Shown: one piece after another, positions 10,305 through 40,668 of the stretch
Position numbering within the stretch: position 1 is the first letter of the stretch
Layout: the number at the start of each line of letters is the position of its first letter
Source of the DNA: Dehalococcoidia bacterium
GTDB taxonomy: Bacteria; Chloroflexota; Dehalococcoidia; Lucifugimonadales; UBA3495
NCBI GenBank assembly: GCA_965203855.1
Contig: CBDBDN010000005.1
Location: forward strand, 463,806 to 527,805
Direction: 5' to 3'
Length of the DNA stretch: 64,000 nt
Made by a program: the position numbers and the translations under genes
Notes under the pieces: model-generated
What the model was told of the DNA's origin: nothing
The model's input: the letters and a program-made list of their open reading frames with translations, nothing else
Database searches by the model: none

Positions 10305-11453
10305 TCAGGCGGTTGGCGGGCGGGCGCAGTCGTCCACCAGCTCGGCAACCATTTGGCGGGTTACATGGGGCATAGTGATGATGTGGGCGATGTCGCCTTC
10401 CGGGGCCATCTGCCACTTGCGGAACACGGACGGCGCCGGCTTGGGAAATACTACGGTAACCGAGTTTTGATGCCGCCAGGCGGGGATGCCGCGCTCATTA
10501 AACTGCCCGACGGCGTATTCGGCGGTATCCAGCATCCGGGCTACTATCTTGCGGAAACCGGCGTTGCCGTGCCGGGCGAAAGCGTACCACAGCATCAGCG
10601 GGGCGATGGCGCTGCGCGAGCCCGACAAGGTAGTATCCTCAACGCCGACATACTCAATGGCGCGGCCCACCCGTTCCACATAAGGTTTGCGAGTCAGCAC
10701 GACGCCGCACGGCAGGGGCGCGCCAATCAGCTTGTGGCCGCTGACGGATACGCTGTCAATGCCGGCGTCAAAGCCGTAGGGCTGCGGGGCGTCCACGAAA
10801 GGCAGTATCATACCGCTGAGAGCGGCGTCGGCGTGGATGTAAGAGTTAGTAACGGCCAGGTCGCTGAGGATGGCGCGTAGCCGGGGAATGTCGTCCACGG
10901 CGCCGCGCATCGTAGTGCCGACATTGGCCATAATGACGGCCGGCGCATCCCGATTGACCCGTATCATTTCGTACAGGTCATCGTAGTCAATCTCGCCGTT
11001 GTCCTGCCGGCGTATCATAATGTGGCGGGCGTTGAGGACGCGCACATTTTTGAGGACGCTGTAATGGGTTTCCTCAGAGAAATAGAACATAGCGTTGGGG
11101 AACAGCTCGCGGGCCAGATAGAGGCCGTACATATTGCCCTCGGTGCCGCCGGAGGTTACATAGCCCCAGGCGTCATTCGGCGCGATATGCAGCAAGTCGG
11201 CAAAGTGCGTAATCACCTCCCGTTCAATTTCGTGGGTGTTGCCCCAGAAATTGCTGGGATGGAACGGGTCGCCCACATTGTTGATAGAGTAGCCCATAAA
11301 GGGAAACAGGGGCGAATAGTCGAAGTCCTGGTTCACCGGATAGCCAATCTGCTGCCCGGTAAGCATTTTGATGCCGTGCAGCAGCCCATCCAGCCGTTCC
11401 TGAATTTCATGCTGCGGCAGGCCGCTGTCGGCCAGGGCGGGGGCAGTAGTCAT
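10305..11453 (-). CDS. hdc: PLP-dependent histidine decarboxylase-like protein (group II decarboxylase)
   Basis: GYPVNQDFDY, INNVGDPF, WGYVTSGGTEGNMYGLYLARE, THYSV, IHADAAL, SVSGHKLIG. Confidence 0.8.
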   Translation of the reverse strand: MTTAPALADSGLPQHEIQERLDGLLHGIKMLTGQQIGYPVNQDFDYSPLFPFMGYSINNVGDPFHPSNFWGNTHEIEREVITHFADLLHIAPNDAWGYVTSGGTEGNMYGLYLARELFPNAMFYFSEETHYSVLKNVRVLNARHIMIRRQDNGEIDYDDLYEMIRVNRDAPAVIMANVGTTMRGAVDDIPRLRAILSDLAVTNSYIHADAALSGMILPFVDAPQPYGFDAGIDSVSVSGHKLIGAPLPCGVVLTRKPYVERVGRAIEYVGVEDTTLSGSRSAIAPLMLWYAFARHGNAGFRKIVARMLDTAEYAVGQFNERGIPAWRHQNSVTVVFPKPAPSVFRKWQMAPEGDIAHIITMPHVTRQMVAELVDDCARPPTA

Positions 11454-11635
11454 AAGTCGGCGGCTCCTGTGGGGTAAGCGCTTACTGGCGGTTACCGGAT
11501 TAGCGGCGGTTGCGGACTGGTAAAGCAAGGGTATGCTAAACCGGGTAAAATCGCAATGCGCGGGCGGTCATTCGCATTCGTCGTTATTCGTCGGCCGCGG
11601 CCCGTCATTCATCCCGGTTTAGCGGCTCAACTATA

Positions 11636-25488: not shown

Positions 25489-26430
25489 ATGAGCGTTGCC
25501 ATCGGGTATGTCCCCGGCGCATTCGGGCAAGGGGGCGACGACCCCAATTTTCTCCGCACCCTGGTGGAGCTGGGCGACCAGTACGAGTACGATTCCATCT
25601 GGCTCAGCGACCGCATTTGCAGCGAAAAGTTCAGCCTGGAGCCGATGGTGGCTCTGTCGCTGGTCGCCGGCTACTCCGACCGCCTCAAGTTTGGCACCAG
25701 CGTGCTGGCGCTGCCGCTCCGCAACCCCGTAGTGCTGGCCAAGCAGGTGGCTACGCTGGACTGGCTGTCGCAAGGCCGCTTTTTCCCGGCCGTCGGCCTG
25801 GGGCAGGAAGATCCGGACGAGTACGAAGCCTGCGGCGTTCCCAAGGCGGACCGCGCCCGCCGCACGGACGAAGCTATAACGCTGATGCGCCGTCTGTGGG
25901 AAGAGGAATATGTTACCCACGAGGGCGACTTTTTCAGCACGCATAATGTGTCGGTAACGCCGCGCACTTTCCTGAAGCCCTCACCGCCGGTATGGATTGG
26001 CGGACGCAGCCCGGCGGCGGCCCGGCGCGTCGGCCGCGTCGGCGACGGCTGGCTGGTATCCAGCGCCACGCCCGCCGAAGTGCGCGCCGGCCGGGAAATC
26101 GTCTTTGAAACGGCGCAGCAGTACGACCGGGAGATTGAGGAGGACCATGTTGGCGTCCTTATCGGCTACTACATCAGCGACGACCGGACGGCGGGAGAGG
26201 CCAAATCCGAGCAGTTCGTAACCCGGCACCGGCCCGACGCGCACTTTACCGAGTACTCGGCCATCGGCACCAGTGAGCAGATCGGCGACTTCATCCAGCA
26301 GTACATTGACGCCGGCGGGTTCAAGTTCGTCATCCGGCCCCTGTGCGCCGGCGCCGAGTCTATGGAGCAGCTGGAACAAGCCGGCGCGGAAATACTGCCC
26401 CGGTTCCACGGCCCGCGCGCCGTCGCATAG
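25489..26430 (+). CDS. LLM-class flavin/F420-dependent oxidoreductase
   Basis: SIWLSD, FGTSVLALPLRNPVVLAKQVATLD..GR, PPVWIGG. Confidence 0.92.
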   Translation: MSVAIGYVPGAFGQGGDDPNFLRTLVELGDQYEYDSIWLSDRICSEKFSLEPMVALSLVAGYSDRLKFGTSVLALPLRNPVVLAKQVATLDWLSQGRFFPAVGLGQEDPDEYEACGVPKADRARRTDEAITLMRRLWEEEYVTHEGDFFSTHNVSVTPRTFLKPSPPVWIGGRSPAAARRVGRVGDGWLVSSATPAEVRAGREIVFETAQQYDREIEEDHVGVLIGYYISDDRTAGEAKSEQFVTRHRPDAHFTEYSAIGTSEQIGDFIQQYIDAGGFKFVIRPLCAGAESMEQLEQAGAEILPRFHGPRAVA

Positions 26431-26446
26431 CCGGCAGGAGGCCAAG

Positions 26447-27094
26447 ATGACTACCGCAACCGTTGCCCCTACGGCGGCCCCTGCCGCCGTCAAACCCAAG
26501 CTACGCGCCGGCATCCGGATGTCGCTGGACGAGTTCCTCGCCCTCGGCGAAACCGACGGCTGCCAGGAACTGGACGACGGAGTGCTTCACATAATGCCAT
26601 CAGCCAGCCCGGATCACCAGTTTTTACAGACCGAATTGATTTGGCATCTGGTGAGCTATTTCAGGGGTTTTCAGGAACCGCCGGCATTGCTGTTCCCGGA
26701 TACGACGGTCGTACTGTCCCGGGAGCAGCAGCGCGTACCGGAGCCGGATCTGGCAATTATCCTCAACGAGCGGGCCGGCATAATTGGACGGAGCCGGATT
26801 GAAGGAGCGCCGGACATCGTGGTGGAAATCCTTTCATCCGATCGGATTCGGGATCTAGTGTACAAGCGGCGCATCTACGCCGAGGCCGGCGTCAAAGAGT
26901 ACTGGATTGTTGACCCGCGCCACGATACGGTTCTGCCGTTAGCTTTGCAGGACGGGGCCTATGCGGAACGGCAGCCGCTTGGCCCCGGCGACACGCTGTC
27001 CACGCCGCTGCTCCCCGGCCTGGCCATACCGCTGGCCGATCTGTTCCAGCATCGCCGCCGTCCGCACCGGGACGACGCCGCGGACAACGAATGA
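26447..27094 (+). CDS. Uma2-family PD-(D/E)XK-like endonuclease, copy 1
   Basis: EL..G, HQ, EPDL, APDIVVEILS, YAEAGVKEYWIVDP. Confidence 0.92.
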   Translation: MTTATVAPTAAPAAVKPKLRAGIRMSLDEFLALGETDGCQELDDGVLHIMPSASPDHQFLQTELIWHLVSYFRGFQEPPALLFPDTTVVLSREQQRVPEPDLAIILNERAGIIGRSRIEGAPDIVVEILSSDRIRDLVYKRRIYAEAGVKEYWIVDPRHDTVLPLALQDGAYAERQPLGPGDTLSTPLLPGLAIPLADLFQHRRRPHRDDAADNE

Positions 27095-27143
27095 CCACAG
27101 CAATGACGCCGGACTATCCCAACTGCGCCGGCAGGAGGCCAAG

Positions 27144-27791
27144 ATGACTACCGCAACCGTTGCCCCTACGGCGGCCCCTGCCGCCGTCAAACCCAAGCTA
27201 CGCACCGGCATCCGGATGTCGCTGGACGAGTTCCTCGCCCTCGGCGAAACCGACGAGCGCCTGGAACTTTTCGGCGGAGTGCTTTACCTGATGTCCACAC
27301 CCACCAAAGACCACCAATTCCTGATGGGGCAGCTGTCATTTCACTTTGAATTGTATCTTGACAGGTTCGAGCAGCCCCCGGCGGAAGTGTACATGGACAT
27401 AACCACCATCCTGTCGGTATCGCTGCAAAATGCAGTTGAGCCGGATCTAGTTGTCATCCTCAGCGGGCGCAGCGACATTGGAGGGCGCATCCATGTTGAG
27501 GGCGTGCCGGATATTGCCGTGGAAATCTTGTCATCAGACCGCAGCCATGACCTGGTGTACAAGCGGCGCATCTACGCCGAAGCCGGCGTCAAAGAGTACT
27601 GGATTGTTGACCCGCGCCACGATACGGTTCTGCCGTTAGCCTTGCAGGACGGGGCCTATGCGGAACGGCAGCCGCTTGGCCCCGGCGACACGCTGTCCAC
27701 GCCGCTGCTGCCCGGACTCGCCATACCGCTGTCGGAGCTGTTCCAGCACCGCCGCCGTCCGCACCGGGACGACGCCGGGGATAACGAATGA
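27144..27791 (+). CDS. Uma2-family endonuclease, copy 2
   Basis: Same motifs; GGAGG RBS. Confidence 0.92.
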   Translation: MTTATVAPTAAPAAVKPKLRTGIRMSLDEFLALGETDERLELFGGVLYLMSTPTKDHQFLMGQLSFHFELYLDRFEQPPAEVYMDITTILSVSLQNAVEPDLVVILSGRSDIGGRIHVEGVPDIAVEILSSDRSHDLVYKRRIYAEAGVKEYWIVDPRHDTVLPLALQDGAYAERQPLGPGDTLSTPLLPGLAIPLSELFQHRRRPHRDDAGDNE

Positions 27792-27861
27792 CTGCGCGGA
27801 ATGAACGAACAAACGCAGCAATGACGCCCGCTTGCCCCAAGTGCGCCGGCCGGAGGCCAAT

Positions 27862-28509
27862 ATGACTACCGCAACCGTTACCCCTACGGCGGCCCCTGCC
27901 GCCGTCAAACCCATGCTACGCACCGGCGCCCGGATGTCGCTGGACGAGTTCCTCGCCCTCGGCGAGACCGACGAGCGCCTGGAACTTTTCGGCGGAGCGC
28001 TTTATCTGATGTCCACACCTACCAAAGACCACCAATTCCTGATGGGGGAATTGTACCTTTATCTTGCGCTGTACCTGAACGGCTTCGCATTGCCCCCGGC
28101 GGAAGTGTATCAGGACATAACCACCATCCTGTCGGTATCGCTGCAAAATGCCGTTGAGCCGGATCTGGTCGTCATCCTCAGCGGGCGCAGCGACATTGGA
28201 GGGCGCATCCATGTTGAGGGCGTGCCGGATATTGCTGTGGAAATCCTGTCCTCCGACCGCAGCCATGACCTGGTGTACAAGCGGCGCATCTACGCCGAAG
28301 CCGGCGTCAAAGAGTACTGGATTGTTGACCCGCGCCACGATACGGTTCTGCCGTTAGCCTTGCAGGACGGAGCCTATGCGGAACGGCAGCCGCTTGGCCC
28401 CGGCGACACGCTGTCCACGCCGCTGCTGCCCGGACTCGCCATACCGCTGGCTGATCTGTTCCAGCACCGCAGGCGTCCAACCCGGGATGACGCCGGGGCC
28501 AATGAATGA
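27862..28509 (+). CDS. Uma2-family endonuclease, copy 3
   Basis: Same motifs; 718 bp after copy 2. Confidence 0.92.
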   Translation: MTTATVTPTAAPAAVKPMLRTGARMSLDEFLALGETDERLELFGGALYLMSTPTKDHQFLMGELYLYLALYLNGFALPPAEVYQDITTILSVSLQNAVEPDLVVILSGRSDIGGRIHVEGVPDIAVEILSSDRSHDLVYKRRIYAEAGVKEYWIVDPRHDTVLPLALQDGAYAERQPLGPGDTLSTPLLPGLAIPLADLFQHRRRPTRDDAGANE

Positions 28510-28579
28510 CTGCGCGGAATGAACGAACAAACGCAGCAATGACGCCCGCTTGCCCGAACTGCGCCGGCCGGAGGCCAAT

Positions 28580-29227
28580 ATGACTACCGCAACCGTTACC
28601 CCTACGGCGGCCCCTGCCGCCGTCAAACCCATGCTACGCACCGGCGCCCGGATGTCGCTGGACGAGTTCCTCGCCCTCGGCGAGACCGACGAGCGCCTGG
28701 AACTTTTCGGCGGAGCGCTTTATCTGATGTCCACACCTACCAAAGACCACCAATTCCTGATGGGGGAATTGTACCTTTATCTTGCGCTGTACCTGAACGG
28801 CTTCGCATTGCCCCCGGCGGAAGTGTATCAGGACATAACCACCATCCTGTCGGTATCGCTGCAAAATGCGGTTGAGCCGGATCTGGTCGTCATCCTCAGC
28901 GGACGCAGCGACATTGGAGGCCGCATCCATGTTGAGGGCGTGCCGGATATTGCTGTGGAAATCCTGTCCTCCGACCGCAGCCATGACCTGGTGTACAAGC
29001 GGCGCGTTTATGCCGAAGCCGGCGTCAAAGAGTACTGGATTGTTGACCCGCGCCACGATACGGTTTTGCCGTTAGCTTTGCAGGACGGGGCCTATGCGGA
29101 ACGCCCGCCGCTTGGCATCGGCGACACGCTGTCCACGCCGCTGCTGCCCGGACTCGCCATACCGCTGTCGGAGCTGTTCCAGCACCGCCGCCGTCCGCAC
29201 CGGGACGACGCCGGGGATAACGAATGA
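28580..29227 (+). CDS. Uma2-family endonuclease, copy 4
   Basis: Same motifs; 718 bp after copy 3. Confidence 0.92.
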   Translation: MTTATVTPTAAPAAVKPMLRTGARMSLDEFLALGETDERLELFGGALYLMSTPTKDHQFLMGELYLYLALYLNGFALPPAEVYQDITTILSVSLQNAVEPDLVVILSGRSDIGGRIHVEGVPDIAVEILSSDRSHDLVYKRRVYAEAGVKEYWIVDPRHDTVLPLALQDGAYAERPPLGIGDTLSTPLLPGLAIPLSELFQHRRRPHRDDAGDNE

Positions 29228-30445: not shown

Positions 30446-31534
30446 ATGACACCGGAAAATGGCAGCGGCGCGCGCCGCGCGGCGGCTCCCCCGGATTTTA
30501 CTCCGGGGGAGCGCATTCGCCTGGCGCGAGAGAACCTGTGCCTGGCGATGTCGCTTTTTGCGGCATCGCACCAGGGGCTGATTACCACCTCTTTTGTGCA
30601 TCCCGCCGTTGCGCTGCGCCGGCCCACCGGGGAGGTTATAGACTCCTACGCCCGGCTGGAACTGCCCGACGACCCGGCACTGGTGCGCTGCGCCGGCAAT
30701 CAGGTGCGCGGCGCTTTCGTCCTGTCCGTGCTGCAAACCGAGCGTGAGCTGGCCGGCCGGTTTGGCGAACCGTCGGAATCATCCGACCGGCCCGCTGCTG
30801 ACGCCGACTTGCACGCCGCCCGCTGCGCCGTTTATCTGCTGGCCCGCAGCGTAGAGCGTAGCCTGATTGCCCCCGTATGGGATGTTCCCGCCGCCTATGC
30901 CCGCCGCTACGCCGTACCCAACCCGGACTTTACCCTGGACGCCGCCGGTTTGGACGGACGGGAAGTGCGCTGGGAACATTTCGGCGGCCTCCCCCGCTAT
31001 CTGGATTTGACGCTCTACCTGTCCCGGCGGCTGGACGGATACGGATACGCCGCCGGCAGTTCCGACAGCTATGGCTATGGCGCGGTAGAACGGCTGGCCG
31101 CCCGTCCGGCAACAGAGGCGGCCGCATCCGGGCCGGCCGGCGTCCGTCCCGGCTATGGCGCCGGCGCCGGACGCCGGCACCAGCAACAGCGCGCCGGCGC
31201 CAACCCGTCCGGCCCTGGATTCAGCTCCGGCAATGATGCCGCTGCCGGCTGGATTCCCCCCGACGGCAGCGATGCGCCGCCCATCGTCATTGCCGCATCG
31301 GCGGCGGCGCCCGGCCCGGTGGCCGACTTCGTATCCGACGCCTGCGCTACCGGCGGCAAGGCGATGACTTTGGCCGGCGAACTTTATACCTGCTACGCCC
31401 GCTGGTGCCTGGACAACGGGTATCTGGCCGTCAGCCAGCGCAAATTCGGCCTGGAGCTGGCCGCCGGCGGCTACGAGCGCAAGCGACGCGGCAAAGGCAA
31501 ACACTGGTGGATGGGCCTGCAACCGCGCGACTAG
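30446..31534 (+). CDS. hypothetical protein with C-terminal primase(D5)-like winged-helix domain
   Basis: PVADFVSDAC..ELYTCYARWC..G..SQRKFGLEL..G..W.GL after a low-complexity linker. Confidence 0.7.
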   Translation: MTPENGSGARRAAAPPDFTPGERIRLARENLCLAMSLFAASHQGLITTSFVHPAVALRRPTGEVIDSYARLELPDDPALVRCAGNQVRGAFVLSVLQTERELAGRFGEPSESSDRPAADADLHAARCAVYLLARSVERSLIAPVWDVPAAYARRYAVPNPDFTLDAAGLDGREVRWEHFGGLPRYLDLTLYLSRRLDGYGYAAGSSDSYGYGAVERLAARPATEAAASGPAGVRPGYGAGAGRRHQQQRAGANPSGPGFSSGNDAAAGWIPPDGSDAPPIVIAASAAAPGPVADFVSDACATGGKAMTLAGELYTCYARWCLDNGYLAVSQRKFGLELAAGGYERKRRGKGKHWWMGLQPRD

Positions 31535-31793
31535 AAAATATCAATGTGCGTCATTCCGGCGCAAGCCGGAATCCCTCCGACTAATGGCCGTATGACGGGA
31601 TTTGGCAATGATGCCGACGGGCAGGATGGGGATGTTTGGAATTATGGAATGGATGCAGGCGCTGAGGCGGATTTCAGGGGCATTCGTTACATAAGCGTTA
31701 CATTGGCGCAAAACCGGCGAAACATTGCGGCGGCATACTGGCACTATCACCAATCGGGGCTGTCCCCCATCCTGCCTGCTGGAGAACGCTGAA

Positions 31794-31955
31794 ATGATTG
31801 CCATTGCCGCCGCCGCCGCTTTTGTCGGACTGTTTGCTCTCTGGGTTATCCTGCCCCGGTTTATCCTGCGCCGCCATGACAACAGCGTGCGCCGCGTCTC
31901 TGCCAACCCCATCCCGCAGGCGCAGGACGATTTTGCGCCGCAAGCCGCCGACTAG
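31794..31955 (+). CDS. small single-TM protein
   Basis: GGAG RBS; MIAIAAAAAFVGLFALWVILPRFILRRH. Confidence 0.45.
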   Translation: MIAIAAAAAFVGLFALWVILPRFILRRHDNSVRRVSANPIPQAQDDFAPQAAD

Positions 31956-32151
31956 CCGGCCGCTGTCGCGTTTCCATTCGCACCCCGTCTATTGCAACCC
32001 TCCCCTGTACGGGGGAGGGTTTTTAGTTATCTCAGACGGCTAGCAAGATCCCGTCTATTCCATCCCATATCCGCGCTCCGGCAAGCAAGTGGCGCATTTC
32101 GCAAGTTGGTGCGATAATGCGGGCGATGCCAACTGACCAGGAGCAACCGGA

Positions 32152-32499
32152 ATGACTACGCCCCTGCCGCTATTGTCCGGCGGCGCTGATACTGCTGCCG
32201 ATAGCGCACCCGAACCCGCCACGGCGGGCATTACCGTCAAAACCGGCCCGGAGTTGGCCCGGGTGCAGGTATCTTGCCAGCATCAGAGCGGCCTCATTTA
32301 CGTCGTACCCGGCGACCGCAGCTGGGTGTGCAGCGACGAGCTGCGTCCGGCACACGCGCTGGCCGGATTTTTCCGGGAACTGATTGCGTTGGACGACCCG
32401 CGCGTGGCCGGACTGATGCAGCAGTGGGGCCTCTACTACCGCAGCCTGCCTCTGGATGCGGACGTTGCTGAAAACGCTGCCGACGCTGCGGACGGCTAG
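32152..32499 (+). CDS. hypothetical protein
   Basis: AGGAG RBS, GC3-rich codons. Confidence 0.7.
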   Translation: MTTPLPLLSGGADTAADSAPEPATAGITVKTGPELARVQVSCQHQSGLIYVVPGDRSWVCSDELRPAHALAGFFRELIALDDPRVAGLMQQWGLYYRSLPLDADVAENAADAADG

Positions 32500-32583
32500 G
32501 CTTGGCGGCAGAGCTTGCCCGTCTGTTCCGATGCCGAGCAAAGGAGCCGGTCGGCGAAGGGTTCGGCTTTCCTCTGAGCCATA

Positions 32584-32650
32584 GATTCCGGCTTGCGCCG
32601 GAATGACGGGATACACGCCGGAATGACGGGATACGCGCCGGAATGGCGGA
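32584..32650. repeat. REP unit plus 19-bp tandem repeats
   Basis: GATTCCGGCTTGCGCCGGAATGACGG then (GATACRCGCCGGAATGRCGG)-like units. Confidence 0.85.
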
Positions 32651-32824
32651 TACACGCCCGAACCGCCTGGATCCAAACGCAGCGGGCCGGGCGGCGATGG
32701 CGATATTGGCAATATCGCGCACAATTGCCCCGTTCTAGTTATGTAATCGCAAATTGAACTGCGAAAAGCGGTAAAACGAGGCGGTTTTCGTAATCAAGGG
32801 GCGTTTTTGGACGCTTTTTAGTAT

Positions 32825-32853
32825 TTGACACCCCCGATAAGGCGGGCTACACT
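32825..32853 (+). promoter_or_regulatory. sigma70 promoter
   Basis: TTGACA-17 bp-TACACT. Confidence 0.75.
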
Positions 32854-32911
32854 GCCTCTAATCAAAGCAGGTCTGCACGACCATCAACCTGCCCTTAATC
32901 AAGGAGGCCAT

Positions 32912-33082
32912 ATGAGTGCAGCCGCGCCGCGAGCGCACATCGACTTACCGGAGCCGTACTCGGTACGGTTCCATCAAACCGGGAAGCCCAACGCGGGCTT
33001 TCCGCTCTGCGGCACCGTGGAGCGCGTCCAGATGCGCCGGTTCCGCGCCCGTCCCAAGCACCGGCTCCCCTGCGAGCCCTAG
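32912..33082 (+). CDS. 56-aa small ORF / possible leader peptide
   Basis: Perfect AAGGAGG RBS before ATG; lies between the promoter and a terminator-like hairpin. Confidence 0.5.
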   Translation: MSAAAPRAHIDLPEPYSVRFHQTGKPNAGFPLCGTVERVQMRRFRARPKHRLPCEP

Positions 33083-33097
33083 CTGCTTGCGCTGACT

Positions 33098-33140
33098 GCG
33101 AGCGGCGGGAACAGCATCCCGCCCAAAGCTCGCCTCTTTT
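33098..33140 (+). terminator. terminator/attenuator-like hairpin
   Basis: GCGAGC-GGCGGGA..TCCCGCC-GCTCGC followed by CTCTTTT. Confidence 0.55.
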
Positions 33141-33325
33141 CTCCCTCCGTGATTTGCCGCCGGCGTGTCATGCGCCGGGGTAGGGGCTCGCTTTAACTGC
33201 GGCCTCTGCGAATGGGCATTGCACGGAGGAGCATCGCCTACCATACCGGCAATGACGCTTGTTGCCGGCTGCGGGCGCAGCATACCGCATCGTCTGCCGC
33301 GCCGCCAATCACAAAGGAGCTCAAT

Positions 33326-33706
33326 ATGCGCGAGATCTTACGATCCAAGATTCACCGCTGCTGGGTAACCGGGTCCAACCTGGAGTACGTCGGCAGCATC
33401 ATCATTGACCGGGAGTTGATGGAAAAGGCCGACATCTGGGAGTTTGAGAAAGTGGTGGTCTGCAACGCCAGCAACGGGCAGCGCTGGGAGACCTACGCCC
33501 TGCCCGGCGAGCGCGGCAGCGGCACCATATCCGTCCAGGGGCCGGGCGCCCGCCTCTGCCACAAGGGCGACTGCCTGGTCATCCTGTCCTACGAAGTTAC
33601 CGACCACCCGGTGGAACAGAAAATGATTCTCACCGACGAGAACAACCACTTCCTGGAATACATCGAAGGGGCAATGTATGCCGAACCTATCCTCGCGCTT
33701 TTCTGA
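33326..33706 (+). CDS. panD: pyruvoyl-dependent aspartate 1-decarboxylase family protein (divergent)
   Basis: SKIHR, YVG|S self-cleavage site, NGQRWETY, GERGSG; usual NGAAA reads QGPGA. Confidence 0.85.
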   Translation: MREILRSKIHRCWVTGSNLEYVGSIIIDRELMEKADIWEFEKVVVCNASNGQRWETYALPGERGSGTISVQGPGARLCHKGDCLVILSYEVTDHPVEQKMILTDENNHFLEYIEGAMYAEPILALF

Positions 33707-34559
33707 GCGCGACACCGAACAGTACTACGACGCCGAGGATGATCTTTACCGGTCTTTCTGGGACGCCGAGGGCAGCCTGCACTGGGGGGTCTTTGACGGG
33801 CGGGGCAGCAATGCGGCGGTCGGATCCGACGGATCCGGAGCCGGCGATGGCGCGGAGGTGCGGAGCCGCTTTATGGCGGCCTGCTCCCGCCTCAACGAGA
33901 TAATGCTGGCCAACGCCGGCATTGACGGCGCGGCGCGGGTGCTGGACCTGGGCTGCGGCAACGGCAATACCGCAACCTGGCTTTGCCGCACTACCGGCGC
34001 CAGCGTTACCGGCATTGACCTCAGCGGCGTCCGCATTGACAACGCTGTCGCCGCTCTGGCCAATGTCCCGGAACTGGCAGAACGGCTGGCCTTTGAGAAA
34101 GCGTCGGCTACCGACCTGCCTTTCGCCGACGGGTCGTTCACCCATATTTGGAGCCAGGCCACCATCTACCATATCCCCGACAAAGCGCGGACGCTGCAAG
34201 AGGCGTACCGGGTGCTGCAACCCGGCGGCATTATGGTGTTTGACGACCTGACCAAGCCGAAGCCAGACATCAGCGCCGAGGCGCGGGCATTCGTGTACGA
34301 CCGGCTGCTGTTTGACACCGATTACAGCTTTTATTCGTACCAGGACGCGCTGCGGCAGGCCGGGTTCCGGGTGCTGGAGGCGCGGGATTTGTCGGCGCAT
34401 CTGGCGCGCAGCTACGGCTGCCTGTCGGAGATGGCGGCGTCGGGAACTGACCCGGAACGGCGGGAACGGTTCGCCGCCTTGGCCGACGCCTACCGCAAAA
34501 TGGTGAACGCCGTCCGCAACGATGAACTGGGCTGGGCGCAGTATCTCTGCGTTAAATAG
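33678..34559 (+). CDS. class I SAM methyltransferase (sarcosine/dimethylglycine or tocopherol MT-like), paralog 1
   Basis: YYD..YRSFW..SLHWG, VLDLGCGNG, LPFADGSF, VLQPGG; overlaps the panD 3' end. Confidence 0.88.
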   Translation: MPNLSSRFSERDTEQYYDAEDDLYRSFWDAEGSLHWGVFDGRGSNAAVGSDGSGAGDGAEVRSRFMAACSRLNEIMLANAGIDGAARVLDLGCGNGNTATWLCRTTGASVTGIDLSGVRIDNAVAALANVPELAERLAFEKASATDLPFADGSFTHIWSQATIYHIPDKARTLQEAYRVLQPGGIMVFDDLTKPKPDISAEARAFVYDRLLFDTDYSFYSYQDALRQAGFRVLEARDLSAHLARSYGCLSEMAASGTDPERRERFAALADAYRKMVNAVRNDELGWAQYLCVK

Positions 34560-34641
34560 ACGGCCCGGCCAGGCCGCCCGGCTAAACCGCCCGGCGCGGC
34601 GCGGATGCGGCGAACACGGAGCAAATCACAGGAGTTATCTG

Positions 34642-35493
34642 ATGCAAGCGCAAGGGAACCATCACTTTACGGAACAGGAAACCGAGCAGTACTACGATGC
34701 CGAGGATGTCATCTATCGGTCGGTGTGGGATGCGGACGGCAGCGTGCATTGGGGGGTGTTTGACGCGCCGCCCGGCAGCAACGGCAGCATCCGCGACGAG
34801 TTTCTTGCGGCCGGAGTCCGCCTCAACGAGCTGATGGTGGAATACGCCGGCATTGACGCGGCGGCGCGCGTGCTGGATGTGGGCTGCGGCAACGGCACTA
34901 CGGCCGCTTGGCTCTGCCGGGCTACCGGCGCGCAGGTAACCGGCGTGGATCTCAGCGGCGTCCGCATTGAGAACGCCGTTGCCGCGCTGGAAAAAGTTCC
35001 TGAGCTGTCCGACCGGCTGGCCTTTGAGAAAGCGTCCGCGGCGGAACTGCCCTTTGCCGACAGTTCGTTCACCCATGTCTGGAGCCAGGCCACCATCTAC
35101 CATGTCCCCGAAAAGGACCGGGCGTTGCAAGAGGCGTACCGGGTGCTGGAACCGGGCGGCGCGCTGATTTTTGACGACCTGACCAAGCCCAAGCCGGACA
35201 TCAGCGACGCGGCGCGGGAGTTTGTGTATGACCGGCTGCTGTTTGACACCGACTTCAGCTTTTACTCGTACATTGAGACGCTGCGGGAAATCGGCTTTCG
35301 GGTGTTGCAGGCGCGGGATTTGTCGGAGCATCTGGCGCAGAGCTACACCTGCCTGTCCCGGCTGGCGTCCACTGCCGAAGGGCCGGACGGCTACCAGGAA
35401 CGGTTTGAATATCTGTCCGACGCCTATCTGAAAACCGTGGCGGCCATCAACAACGAGGAGCTGGGCTGGGCGCAATTCCTCTGCGTGAAGTAG
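34642..35493 (+). CDS. class I SAM methyltransferase, paralog 2
   Basis: Close paralog of 33678-34559; VLDVGCGNG; AGGAG RBS. Confidence 0.88.
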   Translation: MQAQGNHHFTEQETEQYYDAEDVIYRSVWDADGSVHWGVFDAPPGSNGSIRDEFLAAGVRLNELMVEYAGIDAAARVLDVGCGNGTTAAWLCRATGAQVTGVDLSGVRIENAVAALEKVPELSDRLAFEKASAAELPFADSSFTHVWSQATIYHVPEKDRALQEAYRVLEPGGALIFDDLTKPKPDISDAAREFVYDRLLFDTDFSFYSYIETLREIGFRVLQARDLSEHLAQSYTCLSRLASTAEGPDGYQERFEYLSDAYLKTVAAINNEELGWAQFLCVK

Positions 35494-35550
35494 CCGCCGG
35501 CGTGAAGTAGCCGCCGGCGTGAAACAGCCGCCGGCGTGAAACAGCCGCCA
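35483..35550. repeat. 17-bp tandem repeat x4 starting over the stop codon
   Basis: GCGTGAARYAGCCGCCG units. Confidence 0.85.
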
Positions 35551-35743
35551 ACCAAGCGGCCGGCCGACGGCCGCCGCAACTAACCCAATGGCAGAGTTTT
35601 CAGGCGATTCGGCCGGCAGTTCACCTCTCCGGCGCAAGCCGGAGTCCAGAAAACACACCTGGATTCCGGCGCAAGCCGGAATGACGAAAGGTTGGATCGC
35701 CTAATCGGAAACGCTGCCCCAACCTGAAACGGAGCTTTACCTA

Positions 35744-36388
35744 ATGCCCGAACTGGAAAACATTGACTCGCAAGAGCGCGTGCAGTGGATTTATTCCTCC
35801 GCCAACAATGACGAACTGGCGGCGCGCTATGATGTGTGGGCGCAGGAATATGACGCCGACCTGAATGACACTTTCGTGTGGCTGGCGCCCCGGATAGCGT
35901 CGGAAACGCTGGCGGAATATGTACCCGCCGGCGCGCGCATTCTGGACGCCGGCGCCGGCACCGGGCTGGTGGGCGTAGAGCTGCAACGGCTGGGCTATAC
36001 CGACATCTGCGCGATGGATCTGTCGGAAGGGATGCTGGACGAAGCGCGCGCCAAAGGGTGCTACAACGATTTCCGGCAGATGGCGCTGGGGGGGACGCTG
36101 GATTTCGCCAGCGACGCCTACGACGCCGTCATCAGCGTCGGCGTGTTCACTCCCGGCCATGCGCCGCCCAATTCGTTTGACGAGCTGGCGCGCATTACTA
36201 GGCCGGGCGGCCACATCGTATTCAGCCTGCGCCCGGATACCCGGCTGGAAATGGGGTTCAAGGAACAGATGGAACGGATGGAAGCGGCGGGCGTCTGGAC
36301 GCTGGCAACGGCTACGGAACCGTTCCAGCCGCTGCCCAAAGGCGAGCCGGAAGTGATGCACCAGATCTGGGTGTATCGGGTGAACTAA
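35744..36388 (+). CDS. class I SAM methyltransferase (METTL27-like)
   Basis: YDVWAQEYDADL, ILDAGAGTGLVG, DLSEGML, TRPGG. Confidence 0.88.
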   Translation: MPELENIDSQERVQWIYSSANNDELAARYDVWAQEYDADLNDTFVWLAPRIASETLAEYVPAGARILDAGAGTGLVGVELQRLGYTDICAMDLSEGMLDEARAKGCYNDFRQMALGGTLDFASDAYDAVISVGVFTPGHAPPNSFDELARITRPGGHIVFSLRPDTRLEMGFKEQMERMEAAGVWTLATATEPFQPLPKGEPEVMHQIWVYRVN

Positions 36389-36484
36389 CCCGTTCTGTTA
36401 TTGCAATCCCGCTGCGGGGATTGGGCTGCATTCGCGCGCCGGCCGGCTTGCCGCGTTTCCGGTTGGGCCGGCGGGCGTTGCCGC

Positions 36485-36895
36485 TTATTCCCGCGTTTCC
36501 ATCGGCATACCCTGCGCCATTGCCTCCAGGATGCATTCCTGGCAGCGGTCGCCCGGCTGGTGGCCGGTAGCAGGCCAGATGTCGTTGCCCTTGACGCCGC
36601 AGAGAAAGATGGGTTCCACTTCCTCGATGCCCAGGCTTTCCAGATAGTGGACGAAGCCGCGGCGGTTGGGGTTGTCGTACCACCAGGGCGTCAGCGTGCG
36701 GGCGAGGGCGTGGATGTCCTCTTTGAAGTCGTCGGCGTATTCTGCGGCGTTGTCGGGGATGTCCACCATCCAGCGGGAGCCGGACGGTCCGCCTTCCCGG
36801 GAGGCCGACAGTTTGCCCTCGCGGACATTGCGGCGTATCACGTCCTGGGAAACGTTCAGAATACGGGAGGCTTCCTGAATGGTAACGCGGGGCAT
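36485..36895 (-). CDS. excisionase/MerR-type HTH protein
   Basis: TIQEASRILNVSQDVIRRNVREGKLSA; C-terminal H..C..CxxC. Confidence 0.75.
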   Translation of the reverse strand: MPRVTIQEASRILNVSQDVIRRNVREGKLSASREGGPSGSRWMVDIPDNAAEYADDFKEDIHALARTLTPWWYDNPNRRGFVHYLESLGIEEVEPIFLCGVKGNDIWPATGHQPGDRCQECILEAMAQGMPMETRE

Positions 36896-37127
36896 AATTT
36901 ACCTCGAGGACAGAGCAATGGCGCCGGATTGATTCCGGCGTAGCGATTCCGGCAGGATAATTTCGGCAGAGCGATTCCGGCAGGATAATTTCGGGTTGGG
37001 CAACGGCCTATTTCTACCACTATCCGGGCGGGGTAGCAAGCCGGCCGTCCGGATTAGCAGCGTTTCCAAGCCGGCGGTCTAGCATTGCGCCGCTTCGGGC
37101 TGATTTGCGTCGTTCCGGTTATTTTTC

Positions 37128-37320
37128 GTCATTCCGGCGAAAGCCGGAATCCAGCGCCGTAATCTGCCACTACGATAATGGAACCAGCAGTCATAGATTC
37201 CGGCTTTCGCCGGAATGACGATGAGTTGACGGAATGACGATGAGTTGACGGAATGACGGCGCATTGATGGAATGACGGCGCATTGATGGAATGACAGCGC
37301 ATTGATGGAATGACGGCGCA
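37128..37320. repeat. REP doublet plus six 19-bp tandem units
   Basis: CGTCATTCCGGCGAAAGCCGGAATCC..GATTCCGGCTTTCGCCGGAATGACG, then YGGAATGACR-TGAG/GCGCA-TTGA units. Confidence 0.9.
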
Positions 37321-37321
37321 T

Positions 37322-39049
37322 CTAGCCGACGGCGGCCGGCGTCGGGGCTGGCATTGTGCGGGGATCCTCCATGGTGTCAGCCAGGGAACCGCCGGGGGGA
37401 ACCATGGGGTACACATTGGTTTCCGGCTCAACCACGAACTCAATCAGGAACGGGCCGGCGTAGGCTTGGGCTTCTTGCAAAGCGGCGGCTACATCCTCCT
37501 GGTGTTTCACGCGCAAGCCGGGGATGCCGTAGGCGTTAGCCAGTTTGACGAAATCCGGGCCGGGCATCGGCACCTCTTTAATGTGTCCGTCAAAGAACAT
37601 TTCCTGCCACTGGCGCACCATACCGAGGTAGCCGTTGTTGAAAATGGCGAACTTGACGGGCAGTTTTTCCTGCACGGCGGTAACCAGTTCCTGCAAAGTC
37701 ATCTGAAAGCCGCCGTCGCCGGCTATTGACCAGACCGTGGCGCCGGGGCGTCCCAGCTGGGCGCCCAATGCGGCCGGCACCTCAAAGCCCATTGCGCCGA
37801 GGCCGCCGGAGGTTACGAAGGAATTGGGCTGATTGAGGAACAGATACTGCGCCGCCCACATTTGATGCTGGCCGACGCCGGTAACGACGACGGAGTCAGC
37901 GTCGTGCTGGATGACGGAGTTCAGCTCGGCCAACACCTGCTGGGGCAGCAGGGCGTCGCTGCGGGGGATGTCCAGCGACGGATGCTCGGCGGTGAGGCGG
38001 GCAATGGCGGCCATCCATTCCGGGCGTTCCCGCCATTCGGTAAGCGGGATCAGGGCTTGCAGGACGGGTTTGGCGTCGCCCACCAGAGGGACTTCCGCGG
38101 GAACGATGCGTCCGACCTGGGTCGGCTCAATGTCCAGATGGATGATGCGGGCGTGGGGCGCAAACCCGGAGACGCGTCCGGTAACCCGGTCGTCAAAGCG
38201 CATTCCCAGCCCGATGAGGACATCGGCCTGGTCAACTACCATATTGCACCAGTACATCCCGTGCATCCCCAGCATCCCCAGGCTTTGGGGATGATTGCGC
38301 GGGAAACCGCTCAACCCCAGCAGGGTGTTGATGACGGGGATGCCGGTGCGCTCGGCCAGTTCGCGCAGTTCGTCAAAGGCGCGGGAGTTGACGATGCCAT
38401 GCCCGGCGATTATGACGGGACGCTCGGCGTCGTTAATCAGGCGGGCGGCGCGGCGCACATTCTCCAGAGTTTCGGCGTCAAGAGACGACTCCGGGCGGGA
38501 CGGTGCGGCCGGCGCGGTGAGTTGCGGGTACTCAAATTCGGCCAGCTCCAGCTGCACATCGCGGGGAACATCAATCAGCACCGGGCCGGGGCGTCCTTCC
38601 TGGGCGACGCGGAAAGCTTCGCTGACGGTACGGGCCAGGTCGTTGGCGGACAGCACCAGATAAGTGCGCTTGGTGCAGACGGCGGCGATGCTGCAAATGT
38701 CGCATTCCTGGAAGGCTTCGGTGCCCAGGGCGGGCCGCGCTACCTGGCCGGTGATGGCAACCAGCGGCACGCTGTCGGCTTTGGCGCCCATAATGCCGGT
38801 AATCAGGTTAGTGGCGCCGGGGCCGGAGGTTGCCACGCAGACGCCGGGTTTGCCGGTGATGCGGGCGTAGCCGTCGGCTGCGTGGGCGGCGGACTGCTCA
38901 TGCCGCACCAGGATATGACGCAGCTGCGGGTAGGCCCAGAGCGCGTCGTAGAAGGGGAGGATGGCGCCGCCGGGATGGCCGAACAGCACATCCACGCCCT
39001 CGCGCAGCAGGCTTTCGCAGATGATTTCGGAACCTTTCAGTTTTACCAC
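37322..39049 (-). CDS. ilvB: acetolactate synthase large subunit
   Basis: FGHPGGAILP, VRHEQ, TSGPGATN, GMLGMHG, GDGGFQMT..NNGYLGMVRQWQ. Confidence 0.96.
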   Translation of the reverse strand: MVKLKGSEIICESLLREGVDVLFGHPGGAILPFYDALWAYPQLRHILVRHEQSAAHAADGYARITGKPGVCVATSGPGATNLITGIMGAKADSVPLVAITGQVARPALGTEAFQECDICSIAAVCTKRTYLVLSANDLARTVSEAFRVAQEGRPGPVLIDVPRDVQLELAEFEYPQLTAPAAPSRPESSLDAETLENVRRAARLINDAERPVIIAGHGIVNSRAFDELRELAERTGIPVINTLLGLSGFPRNHPQSLGMLGMHGMYWCNMVVDQADVLIGLGMRFDDRVTGRVSGFAPHARIIHLDIEPTQVGRIVPAEVPLVGDAKPVLQALIPLTEWRERPEWMAAIARLTAEHPSLDIPRSDALLPQQVLAELNSVIQHDADSVVVTGVGQHQMWAAQYLFLNQPNSFVTSGGLGAMGFEVPAALGAQLGRPGATVWSIAGDGGFQMTLQELVTAVQEKLPVKFAIFNNGYLGMVRQWQEMFFDGHIKEVPMPGPDFVKLANAYGIPGLRVKHQEDVAAALQEAQAYAGPFLIEFVVEPETNVYPMVPPGGSLADTMEDPRTMPAPTPAAVG

Positions 39050-39720: not shown

Positions 39721-40668
39721 ATGCAGTACGGCCTGATCCTACCCAACGTCGGCCCGCTGGCCGACATCACCCACTTGGCCCAATTCGCCCATCACGCTGA
39801 ATCGTCCGGCTGGTACGGCATCTTTCTCAGCGACCATATCGCCGTTCCCGCCGCGCTGCATTCCCGCTACCCCTACCGCACCGACGGCCGTTTCCCGCTA
39901 GACTCCGCCGACCCTATCCTGGAGCCGGTAGTTACGCTGTCTTACCTGGCCGCCGTAACCCGCCGCATCCGGCTCGGCTTCAGCGTACTCGTGCTGCCCT
40001 ACCGACATCCCGTCCTCAACGCCAAAATGCTGTCCACCCTGGACGCCATCTCCGGCGGTCGCCTCATCCTCGGCGCCGGCGTCGGCTGGATGGCCGAGGA
40101 ATTTGAGCTGCTGGACGCCAATTATGCCGAGAGGGGAACCATTACCGACGAGCATATCCGCATCCTGCGCGCATTATGGACGGATGACGCCCCCAACATT
40201 GCCGGCGAACACTACCGCGTTTCCGGGTTTCAACTTTCGCCCCCGCCGGCCCGGCGGCCCCATCCCCCTATCTGGACCGGCGGCGTTAGCCCGCCGGCCT
40301 TGCGCCGGGCCGCCCGGTTGGGCGACGGCTGGCACGGCGTCCGGCAGACCCCGGACGACATCCGCCGGGTGGTTGCCCACATTGCCGAACTGCGCGCCAA
40401 CGCCGGGCTGCCGATGGACGGCTACCAGTTTTCGCTGCGCGCTGGCCTGGACATCACCGCCGCCCCGCTGGATGGCGCCGGGCGCACTCCCCTGCGCGGC
40501 GCCCCCGCCCAAATCGCCGCCGACCTGGACGAATACGCCCGCGCCGGCCTGACCTGCATCGTCCTGGAACCCCGCGCCGCCACACCGGAGCAGTTCATCG
40601 CCCAACTGGACGCTTTCCAACCCCTGCTCTCTAATGCCAATGCCGGGCCGGATACGCCGTCCGTTTAA
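39721..40668 (+). CDS. LLM-class F420-dependent oxidoreductase (TIGR03619-like)
   Basis: SDHIAVP..YPY, LGFSVLVLPYRHP..TLDAISGGRLILGAGVGW..EF. Confidence 0.92.
   Translation: MQYGLILPNVGPLADITHLAQFAHHAESSGWYGIFLSDHIAVPAALHSRYPYRTDGRFPLDSADPILEPVVTLSYLAAVTRRIRLGFSVLVLPYRHPVLNAKMLSTLDAISGGRLILGAGVGWMAEEFELLDANYAERGTITDEHIRILRALWTDDAPNIAGEHYRVSGFQLSPPPARRPHPPIWTGGVSPPALRRAARLGDGWHGVRQTPDDIRRVVAHIAELRANAGLPMDGYQFSLRAGLDITAAPLDGAGRTPLRGAPAQIAADLDEYARAGLTCIVLEPRAATPEQFIAQLDAFQPLLSNANAGPDTPSV

Follow-up and report, generated by a model that had tools for sequence, protein, structure and literature searches.

A conserved cassette of a divergent PanD and two methyltransferase families in SAR202-type Chloroflexota: a candidate operon for β-alanine betaine synthesis behind a leader peptide

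Introduction

A run of four genes in a 64,000-nucleotide stretch of DNA from a Dehalococcoidia bacterium (contig CBDBDN010000005.1 of assembly GCA_965203855.1, positions 463,806 to 527,805; hereafter the window) joins a homologue of PanD, the aspartate 1-decarboxylase that forms β-alanine, with three methyltransferases: MT1 and MT2, which are copies of one type (MT-A), and MT3 (MT-B), which is of another. Parts of this cassette resemble described systems. Close in layout is the route to glycine betaine of Aphanothece halophytica and other halophiles by GSMT and SDMT/DMT (the Aphanothece pair is described in excerpts of PMC9699165), where, as in the cassette, two adjacent S-adenosylmethionine (SAM)-dependent methyltransferases could take a small amino acid to a trimethyl betaine. 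The two differ in that MT-A, at 82–86 bits against a cut-off of 550, is no SDMT and MT3 is METTL27-like rather than GSMT-like; moreover, the cassette operon includes a decarboxylase that would make the substrate, whereas the glycine route needs none. Close in chemistry is Limonium latifolium's β-alanine N-methyltransferase, which has the product and the three N-methylations that we propose here, β-alanine betaine being formed from β-alanine by N-methylation (excerpts of PMC9699165 and PMC13577585). The plant uses one trifunctional enzyme, as described in the excerpt of PMC9699165, whereas the cassette holds two class I methyltransferases of other families and a linked PanD.

The individual proteins also have described counterparts. 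The phosphoethanolamine N-methyltransferases PEAMT and PfPMT resemble MT-A in a profile alignment that reaches the C-terminus and in fold; they are unlike it in sharing 18–22% identity and in that the cassette has no phosphate-related context, and the likeness is by similarity only. The substrate of PEAMT has the form H3N-CH2-CH2-anion, as does β-alanine. Canonical PanD shares with the cassette protein the PF02261 fold family, the G-S self-cleavage site and the catalytic residues, whereas the cassette protein falls below the TIGR00223 cut-off, differs by N72Q, by an aromatic position 13 and by a C-terminal tail, and is linked to methyltransferases instead of panB/panC. Upstream of the cassette is a short open reading frame (uORF). 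TnaC of the tryptophanase operon and SpeFL of the ornithine decarboxylase operon are metabolite-sensing leader, or arrest, peptides that end in Pro-stop. The uORF is like them in being short and placed 5' of a catabolic or biosynthetic operon, with a conserved C-terminus of about 10 residues, an invariant Pro before the stop, a variable body and a downstream RNA element that could be masked; its motif is (K/R)(H/Y)x(L/Y)PC(E/D)P-stop, and the likeness drawn here is one of architecture.

In open-access papers and bioRxiv we found genes for β-alanine betaine synthesis described only from a plant, and no bacterial PanD-methyltransferase route to this compound; subscription journals may contain others. 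If true, a route of three bacterial genes that starts from aspartate and needs no oxygen would add a source of betaines in marine and sponge microbiomes, offer a compact cassette for osmoprotection engineering and open a first functional way into two methyltransferase families that are so far uncharacterised, one of them related to human METTL27. If the leader stalls ribosomes on a small molecule, it would join a very short list of metabolite-sensing nascent peptides, and it was found in a phylum whose gene regulation is almost unexplored. Here we add order-wide counts, genomes with two PanD paralogues, the history of MT-A duplication and loss, pairs of MT-A and MT3 without PanD, and a translated leader peptide with an attenuator-like hairpin.

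Results and discussion

The cassette and its proposed pathway

All four open reading frames (ORFs) were confirmed on the plus strand. The first (33326..33706) encodes 126 amino acids, has AAAGGAG before its ATG and matches PF02261 (Asp_decarbox) at 126.2 bits, past the gathering cut-off of 25; we designate its predicted product, a paralogue of the pyruvoyl aspartate 1-decarboxylase, cassette-type PanD. MT1 (33678..34559; 293 amino acids) is a putative class I SAM methyltransferase of the RebM/SDMT/PEAMT type. Its ATG at 33678 gives a 29-bp overlap with the 3' end of the PanD-like gene, through which MT1 appears to be translationally coupled to PanD. The full ORF of MT2 spans 34522-35493, and alignment with relatives puts its start at 34642 (34642..35493; 283 amino acids); it is a genus-specific duplicate of MT1. 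MT3 (35744..36388; 214 amino acids) is a METTL27-like class I methyltransferase. Class I methyltransferase domains were found by Pfam in MT1, MT2 and MT3. This layout, including the overlap, is as described in a sequence-only reading of the same DNA, which had also noted correctly that panB and panC are missing: neither is inside the 64-kb window, and the same genome carries panB on contig C6 and panC on contig C1.

The most economical chemistry for an aspartate-decarboxylase paralogue combined with two families of small-molecule methyltransferases is the conversion of aspartate to β-alanine betaine. We propose, with confidence that is evenly divided, that the genes form a self-contained operon whose product is an N-methylated β-amino acid, in all likelihood β-alanine betaine. 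The cassette-type PanD, as a pyruvoyl enzyme, would decarboxylate L-aspartate to β-alanine, and MT-A (in one or two copies) and MT3 would methylate the amino group stepwise with SAM to the trimethylated betaine. We infer the substrate, the product, the order of methylation and a role as osmolyte. β-Alanine betaine would fit the anatomy of the locus: the carboxylate-binding Arg is kept in PanD, MT-A is PEAMT/SDMT-like, and two methyltransferase families stand side by side.

Conservation of the PanD-methyltransferase linkage

A linkage that is not conserved was among the conditions under which the sequence-only reading would have given up its case; a synteny survey found the linkage to be strongly conserved. 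In all 36 same-genus genomes searched, a PanD-like gene lies directly beside a gene of the MT1/MT2 type. At the level of the order, MT-A (E<=1e-50) was detected in 42 of 220 genomes and 12 of 61 families; PanD is adjacent in 34 of these 42 genomes, lies elsewhere in 2 (1.24 Mb away in G494 and on another contig in G534), and 6 have no PF02261 match. Thirteen genomes of the order carry PanD but no MT-A. None of 300 other genomes sampled from the phylum has MT-A at E<=1e-40, with up to 8 candidates scored per genome, while PF02261 is present in 88 of them (the unpublished genome G332 included). A scan of species representatives returned 39 loci, whose record titles name Dehalococcoidia, SAR202-cluster or Chloroflexota metagenome-assembled genomes; PanD-like and MT-A genes occur together in 35, and 33 of those 35 have MT3 as well. 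Stop and start codons of PanD and the methyltransferase overlap or abut in every family, and no conserved neighbours beyond the three cassette genes were seen across families in the loci scanned. The constant set is a PanD-like gene, one MT-A and MT3, and the link between PanD and methyltransferase is conserved and lineage-restricted.

The genomes without PanD bear on what the methyltransferases act upon. Pairs of MT-A and MT3 without any PanD occur in G376, G512 and G526, and MT3 is also present in the PanD-less MT-A loci L101-L104. PanC was found in four of five PanD-less genomes checked; since PanC is present, these four must get β-alanine by another route. The PanD-less pairs fit β-alanine as the methyl acceptor, although they are no proof of it. 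Pyridoxal phosphate (PLP)-dependent decarboxylases as an alternative source of β-alanine in PanD-less relatives are patchy (7 of 24 other families). The PLP decarboxylase of the window itself (10305-11528, −), which is the only PF00282 match of the genome, was considered as an aspartate decarboxylase and rejected, as its 472 bits on NF002748, over the cut-off of 305, mark it as a histidine decarboxylase.

Could PanD be a housekeeping enzyme for coenzyme A (CoA) synthesis, with MT-A and MT3 methylating an unrelated lipid, cofactor, natural product or protein and sharing with PanD only regulation or genomic history? The PanD-like gene is the sole PF02261 match in a genome rated 98% complete, with panB and panC elsewhere, and in that respect it looks like a housekeeping gene; the PanD-less pairs of G376, G512 and G526, the separation of the methyltransferases from PanD in G494, the two further methyltransferases adjoining the G376 pair and the natural-product methyltransferases that are the best solved relatives of MT-A all point the same way. 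However, mere shared history does not readily account for adjacency in 36 of 36 and 34 of 42 genomes with overlapping or abutting codons in every family, nor for the same leader peptide before the separated PanD and the separated methyltransferases of G494. Moreover, no other biosynthetic genes are conserved around the cassette across families, and four genomes keep a second, canonical PanD. PanD is also rare in the order while PanC is common: among 24 genomes from its other families, PanC is present in 21 and any PanD in 5, so that PanD tracks the methyltransferases and not PanC. We consider a purely housekeeping PanD distinctly unlikely. A double role is another matter. Given that the genome offers no second PF02261 match and does carry panB and panC, the cassette PanD in the genus of the window probably feeds PanC and CoA synthesis as well.

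Several genomes depart from the simple arrangement. In six of the 42 (G049, G405, G440, G467, G492 and G527), a second MT-A lies away from the one that adjoins PanD; the solitary paralogue of G049 (L015, G049:C1:397000-408000) lies beside IS21-type transposase genes (IstB and integrase) and has its own PCEP-stop uORF. G543 has two MT-A genes, each beside a PanD, of which one is broken. At G543:C1:2187544-2188700 and G542:C1:253377-254547, PanD is broken by split frames or an in-frame TGA and the adjacent MT-A is intact, while in G006 it is the MT-A next to PanD that is interrupted. L102 (G376:C1:2577500-2584500), in a genome without PanD, has four methyltransferase genes in a row: MT3, MT-A, a class I methyltransferase of 263 amino acids and a protein that combines O-methyltransferase family 2 (PF00891) with a dimerisation domain (PF08100).

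A dedicated paralogue of PanD

The sequence-only reading had called the PanD divergent, and its scores and phylogeny agree. It reaches 100.8 bits against the NCBIfam equivalog TIGR00223 (panD), under the cut-off of 106, and is the lowest-scoring full-length PF02261 match in the phylum sample, barring two outliers at about 48 bits. A tree of 79 PanDs, made by a quick method from few columns, sets the cassette type (43 rows) apart by a branch of length 0.56 with a support of 96 in the Shimodaira-Hasegawa-like approximate likelihood ratio test (SH-aLRT). Sister to the cassette clade are the stand-alone PanDs of the order (9 rows, support 98), and the remaining 27 PanDs lie outside these two groups. 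Both kinds coexist in each of four genomes from a single family (G454, G501, G519 and G552). Their stand-alone PanD is canonical, with KIHKATVT, RLETY and MNGASAHL and no C-terminal tail, and their cassette PanD has KIHRAWIT, RWETY, VQGAGARL and an EYLEG tail. The cassette PanD is, by these sequence criteria, a distinct, divergent and seemingly dedicated paralogue.

The residues expected of an aspartate decarboxylase are nonetheless kept, as had been claimed for the G-S site, KIH and RxETY. In alignments to solved PanDs (2c45, 3oug and 1ppy), with those of Mycobacterium tuberculosis and E. coli as reference, K8, H10, Y21, G23-S24, R53, T56 and Y57 are retained (K9, H11, Y22, G24-S25, R54, T57 and Y58 in E. 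coli numbering), and the Gly-Ser self-cleavage site and the catalytic and binding residues are invariant in 21 cassette PanDs. The changes lie elsewhere. The 'NGAAA' of canonical PanD reads 'QGPGA' in the window, which the sequence-only reading had taken for an altered substrate pocket. The motif is indeed present, but across the clade only N72Q is general (Gln in at least 90% of cassette PanDs, with N kept in the lineage L030/L008), while position 73 is P/A and position 74 is G/A. In excerpts of PMC3975893, Asn72 of E. coli aspartate decarboxylase hydrogen-bonds Ser25 in the zymogen and is no shown substrate-specificity residue; because of this contact, N72Q would touch the processing or pyruvoyl site and no demonstrated specificity pocket. 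The clade is further marked by W/F at position 54, by an aromatic position 13 and by a C-terminal tail (F-L/V-E-Y/W-I/L-E-G...) that is conserved within it and missing from canonical PanDs.

These changes bear on the main rival to the proposed pathway, ahead of unrelated methyltransferase targets and of a product short of betaine, which is that the cassette PanD has shifted to a different α-amino acid whose far end is anionic; candidates are cysteate, cysteine sulfinate, glutamate and 3-methylaspartate. Decarboxylation would then give taurine or hypotaurine (from cysteate or cysteine sulfinate) or γ-aminobutyric acid (from glutamate), and the product could be, for example, taurobetaine or γ-butyrobetaine. 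PanD homologues with altered substrate exist, such as CrpG, which acts on 3-methylaspartate, and the first description of taurobetaine reportedly came from a sponge. A shift might leave behind just such a separate paralogue, changed throughout the clade around the pyruvoyl site (N72Q, aromatic 13 and W/F 54) and extended by a conserved C-terminal tail; coexistence with a canonical PanD in four genomes is as expected after a change of function, and the kept Arg53 would suit a sulfonate too. On the other hand, all residues that bind or decarboxylate aspartate in the E. coli and M. tuberculosis enzymes are invariant, and N72 itself persists in one cassette lineage. The loci scanned show no linked genes for cysteate formation or sulfur metabolism, and, as the sole PanD of a genus in which panB and panC are present, the cassette enzyme very likely makes β-alanine. 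A shifted substrate is, in our estimate, unlikely.

The same arginine argues against a substrate of opposite charge. Beside β-alanine betaine, the sequence-only reading had offered a sulfonium route, in which S-methylmethionine or another methylated amino acid would be decarboxylated by the pyruvoyl enzyme toward compounds like dimethylsulfoniopropionate (DMSP); of these two options the former fits the anatomy of the locus, whereas the latter is disfavoured by the invariant Arg53. In the substrate model cited in the excerpted text of PMC3975893, the equivalent of Arg53 is positioned for the distal anionic group; Arg53 and Lys8, both invariant, point at the far end of the bound amino acid, where the positive charge of a sulfonium would meet repulsion. 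Enzymes that could round off a DMSP route (aminotransferase, oxidase, aldehyde dehydrogenase) are not among the conserved cassette genes, and the named profile relatives of MT-A are N-, O- and C-methyltransferases of small molecules, with no characterised methionine S-methyltransferase among the matches. With the co-occurrence of a decarboxylase and methyltransferases as the one point in its favour, we regard the sulfonium route as highly improbable.

A further cassette-type PanD (64% identical) occurs at L050:4001-4342, in a record titled 'candidatus Porisulfidus'. It has VQGPCA, no C-terminal tail and no methyltransferase nearby; it nests in the window's PanD sub-clade on a long branch, and this placement could be due to gene transfer or a binning error. 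A predicted complex of a PanD tetramer with MT-A scored 0.03 with a mark of 0.32, which bears on binding neither way.

Two methyltransferase families

MT1 and MT2 had been taken for near-duplicates. They are related, but with 68% identity over 290 columns they are better described as paralogues. MT2 is monophyletic (24 rows, support 100/100, stem length 0.54) and nested among MT1 sequences within the genus. In 35 loci, both copies are intact in 10, MT1 alone in 7 and MT2 alone in 12, while 6 have a single ancestral type; the loci with MT2 only mostly hold remnants of MT1 or stop codons. Other families of the order have one MT-A each. Since either copy is often lost and the other families have a single MT-A, MT1 and MT2 are no obligatory pair of the GSMT/SDMT kind, as they had been supposed to be. 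The pair of different families, judged by sequence, is MT-A and MT3, and the earlier view of MT3 as unrelated to MT1 and MT2 holds. Residues 27 and 34 of MT1, in the N-terminal cap, switch jointly: F27/L34 occurs in MT1 and some single-copy MT-A, and V27/V34 in MT2 and other single-copy MT-A (L009, L010 and L015). This switch could reflect the size of the pocket for an unmethylated as opposed to a methylated amine.

The ranked profile matches of MT-A begin with MitM (1e-32), AtmM and RebM, followed by PEAMTs and a putative SDMT of Galdieria (4e-24); the alignment with PEAMTs extends through the C-terminal substrate-lid region, at E values of 1e-24 to 1e-17. An AlphaFold model of MT-A (mean predicted local distance difference test score, pLDDT, of 86.9) gave the same list by fold, with 18–22% identity to PEAMTs. 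Profiles and model together place MT-A in the RebM/SDMT/PEAMT group of small-molecule methyltransferases. PEAMTs methylate H3N-CH2-CH2-OPO3 up to three times, and this substrate is a close shape analogue of β-alanine. MT3 has one strong solved relative, METTL27 (structure 7qcb, E 2.2e-25; profile A3, E 1.1e-31), and in the ESM Atlas it matched generic class I methyltransferase clusters only. According to excerpts of PMC9240639, the substrate of METTL27 (WBSCR27) is still elusive.

β-Alanine could also be the start of a pathway with another end, which might stop at N-methyl-β-alanine or N,N-dimethyl-β-alanine, or lead to a methyl ester or to part of a larger molecule. The presence of two unrelated methyltransferase families does not guarantee three N-methylations, the substrate of the METTL27 family is described as elusive in the excerpts of PMC9240639, and the cassette has no conserved betaine exporter or transporter. 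We would add that a leader as elaborate as the one described below is more typical of tight regulation than of bulk osmolyte synthesis. Yet the relatives of MT-A of the PEAMT type, related by similarity here, N-methylate a two-carbon amine with an anionic end repeatedly, and no genes for nonribosomal peptide synthetases, polyketide synthases or ligases are linked. The occurrence of the DNA in sponge and marine metagenomes fits an osmolyte: near-identical DNA was found in four runs of one study labelled sponge metagenome (0.45-0.53 of sampled words) and under the label marine metagenome (0.30 of sampled words). A different end product has, in our view, a slim chance. A search of the genome gave no BCCT match and one good OpuAC-type binding protein.

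Returning to β-alanine betaine, several observations weigh against it as the product or against the route as proposed. Six of the 42 MT-A genomes are without a PF02261 match and two have a non-adjacent PanD. The sequence of the cassette PanD, with N72Q, aromatic position 13 and the C-terminal tail, would leave room for a shifted substrate, and with a sole PanD in this genome, housekeeping and dedicated roles are inseparable here. MT-A reaches the cut-off of no curated equivalog: against SDMT (sarcosine/dimethylglycine N-methyltransferase, NF041675, cut-off 550), the second-best NCBIfam match, MT1 and MT2 score 81.7 and 85.9 bits, far under, and against the DVU_1556 family (NF045667, cut-off 155), MT1, MT2 and MT3 score 98, 106.3 and 42.5 bits, all under. 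The best solved sequence relatives of MT-A are the natural-product methyltransferases MitM, AtmM and RebM and not betaine enzymes. We take the plant β-alanine N-methyltransferase to be COMT-like and of the PF00891 family; none of MT1, MT2 and MT3 gives a Pfam match to it (E<=0.01), and neither MT-A nor MT3 seems to belong to the family of the plant enzyme. Lastly, the nearest solved relative of MT3 is one whose substrate is elusive (excerpts of PMC9240639).

A translated leader upstream of the cassette

A uORF of 56 codons and a TAG (32912..33082, +), with AAGGAGG 5 nt before its ATG, precedes the cassette and ends in ...KHRLPCEP-stop. Its end was recognised as a 16-base motif, CCCTGCGAnCCyTAGC, which 45 of 53 non-redundant loci have at 140-360 nt 5' of their first gene and which occurs once in the genome of the window. 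Read as codons, the motif is CC[N] TG[C/T] GA[N] CC[C/T] TA[G/A], that is, P-C-(E/D)-P-stop. Over 44 distinct sequences, the last four codons and the stop have a summed variability of 0, 0 and 0.86 at codon positions 1, 2 and 3, and the stop itself exchanges between TAG and TAA. R(-12), R(-10), K/R(-8), H/Y(-7) and L/Y(-5) are also conserved further upstream in the peptide. The end of the uORF is therefore under constraint at the level of translation. The motif was considered as an RNA motif or riboswitch core and rejected, as its variable sites are exactly the third codon positions of P-C-(E/D)-P-stop. Two structures around it were likewise discarded: a small RNAalifold hairpin inside the motif, which has non-standard pairs in other families, and a CAGCT/AGCTG helix, in which column 28 varies without compensation (alignment by eye).

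The remainder of the frame is open and its content variable. All 31 rows of the genus keep it open, and the 165 aligned columns contain no indel, while the shifted frame is open in 12 of 31; the ATG with AAGGAGG gives 56 codons in 30 of 31 sequences, and the uORFs of other families have 32-52 codons. In the middle of the genus alignment, variability is flat across codon positions (0.238, 0.255 and 0.262). Because of this flat variability, we take the uORF to be a regulatory nascent peptide with a functional C-terminal end and not a folded protein.

The distribution of the uORF follows the genes of the cassette even where these are scattered. Besides intact cassettes, it stands in front of the lone MT-A of G049 (L015) and, in G494, where the cassette is split, in front of PanD (L100) as well as of the MT-A and MT3 pair (L101). 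A shared uORF in front of cassette, solitary MT-A and split halves points to co-regulation.

Downstream of the uORF is an attenuator-like hairpin (33100..33131, +), identified by covariation, which begins 17 nt after the stop and is followed by the T-rich CCTCTTTTCT. It would act as a terminator; a simple terminator scan did not list it. In an alignment of 31 sequences of the genus leader, about 460 nt long, a structure of six helices has 92.3% of cells paired, against 33-45% with partners slid, and 12 pairs with changes on both sides; none of 500 shuffles reached the observed values, which are to be read with the proviso that the structure was derived from the same, related sequences on which it was scored. 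The hairpin at 33100-33131 is the best supported: helices 5 and 6 have 98.4% and 97.3% of their cells paired, and changes on both sides occur at 6 of the 10 pairs, for example GC in 23 and AU in 8 sequences at one pair and AU in 18 and GC in 13 at another. Rfam 15 gave no credible match in 32800-33330 (E<=10) or 31500-37500 (E<=1), and no leader family in the leaders of L038, L101, L093, L011, L103 and L104. A covariance model from the genus leader (R1) recovers only the 5' half, with the uORF end, in other families; the downstream hairpin is genus-specific or too diverged.

By analogy, the uORF and the hairpin look like an attenuator governed by a leader or arrest peptide. We infer a stalling mechanism in which the ribosome would be held, depending on a signal, at the invariant ...(K/R)(H/Y)x(L/Y)-P-C-(E/D)-P-stop and so control the hairpin 17 nt downstream: a ribosome stalled at PCEP-stop would cover the 5' arm of the hairpin and alter termination or translation further on. 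We found no description of an arrest peptide of the PCEP-stop kind in open-access papers and bioRxiv. A fuller picture, which we offer as tentative and rather doubtful, would be a lineage-restricted, SAR202-type betaine pathway that is switched by a metabolite-sensing arrest peptide of a new kind stalling over the start of the attenuator hairpin, in which the PanD paralogue feeds two new families of small-molecule N-methyltransferases, one of them offering an initial hint at what the orphan METTL27 family acts on, and the betaine, be it β-alanine betaine or a relative such as taurobetaine, is a symbiont-made component of sponge and marine pools.

Other features of the window

Two further signals are consensus matches only. 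A sigma-70-like promoter match 5' of the leader (TTGACA-17-TACACT, 10/12; 32825..32853, +) is at the 5' edge of a block (32845-32938) in which the DNA is 84-90% identical across most genus loci, and a terminator-like stem-loop with a T-rich tail is found at the end of MT3 (36377..36392, +). One member of the genus has, some 330 nt 3' of MT3, a TPP (thiamine pyrophosphate) riboswitch (L038:6569-6681, +; RF00059, 60.3 bits, gathering score 54.3); no such match was reported for the window (Rfam, 31500-37500, E<=1).

Beyond the cassette, and convergent to it, is a homologue of the acetolactate synthase large subunit (37322-39049, −; TIGR00118, 685.6 bits), which is syntenic within the genus only, followed by a TIGR03619-family F420-dependent LLM oxidoreductase (39721-40668, +). 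Just 5' of the cassette region, an ORF at 30446-31534 (+) has a weak match to P4-type primase C-terminal/Pox_D5 domains and may be the remnant of a mobile element. Further upstream, four closely related genes of the Uma2 family (PF05685, putative restriction endonuclease) stand in tandem at 26273-29227 (+), their C-terminal halves being near-identical.

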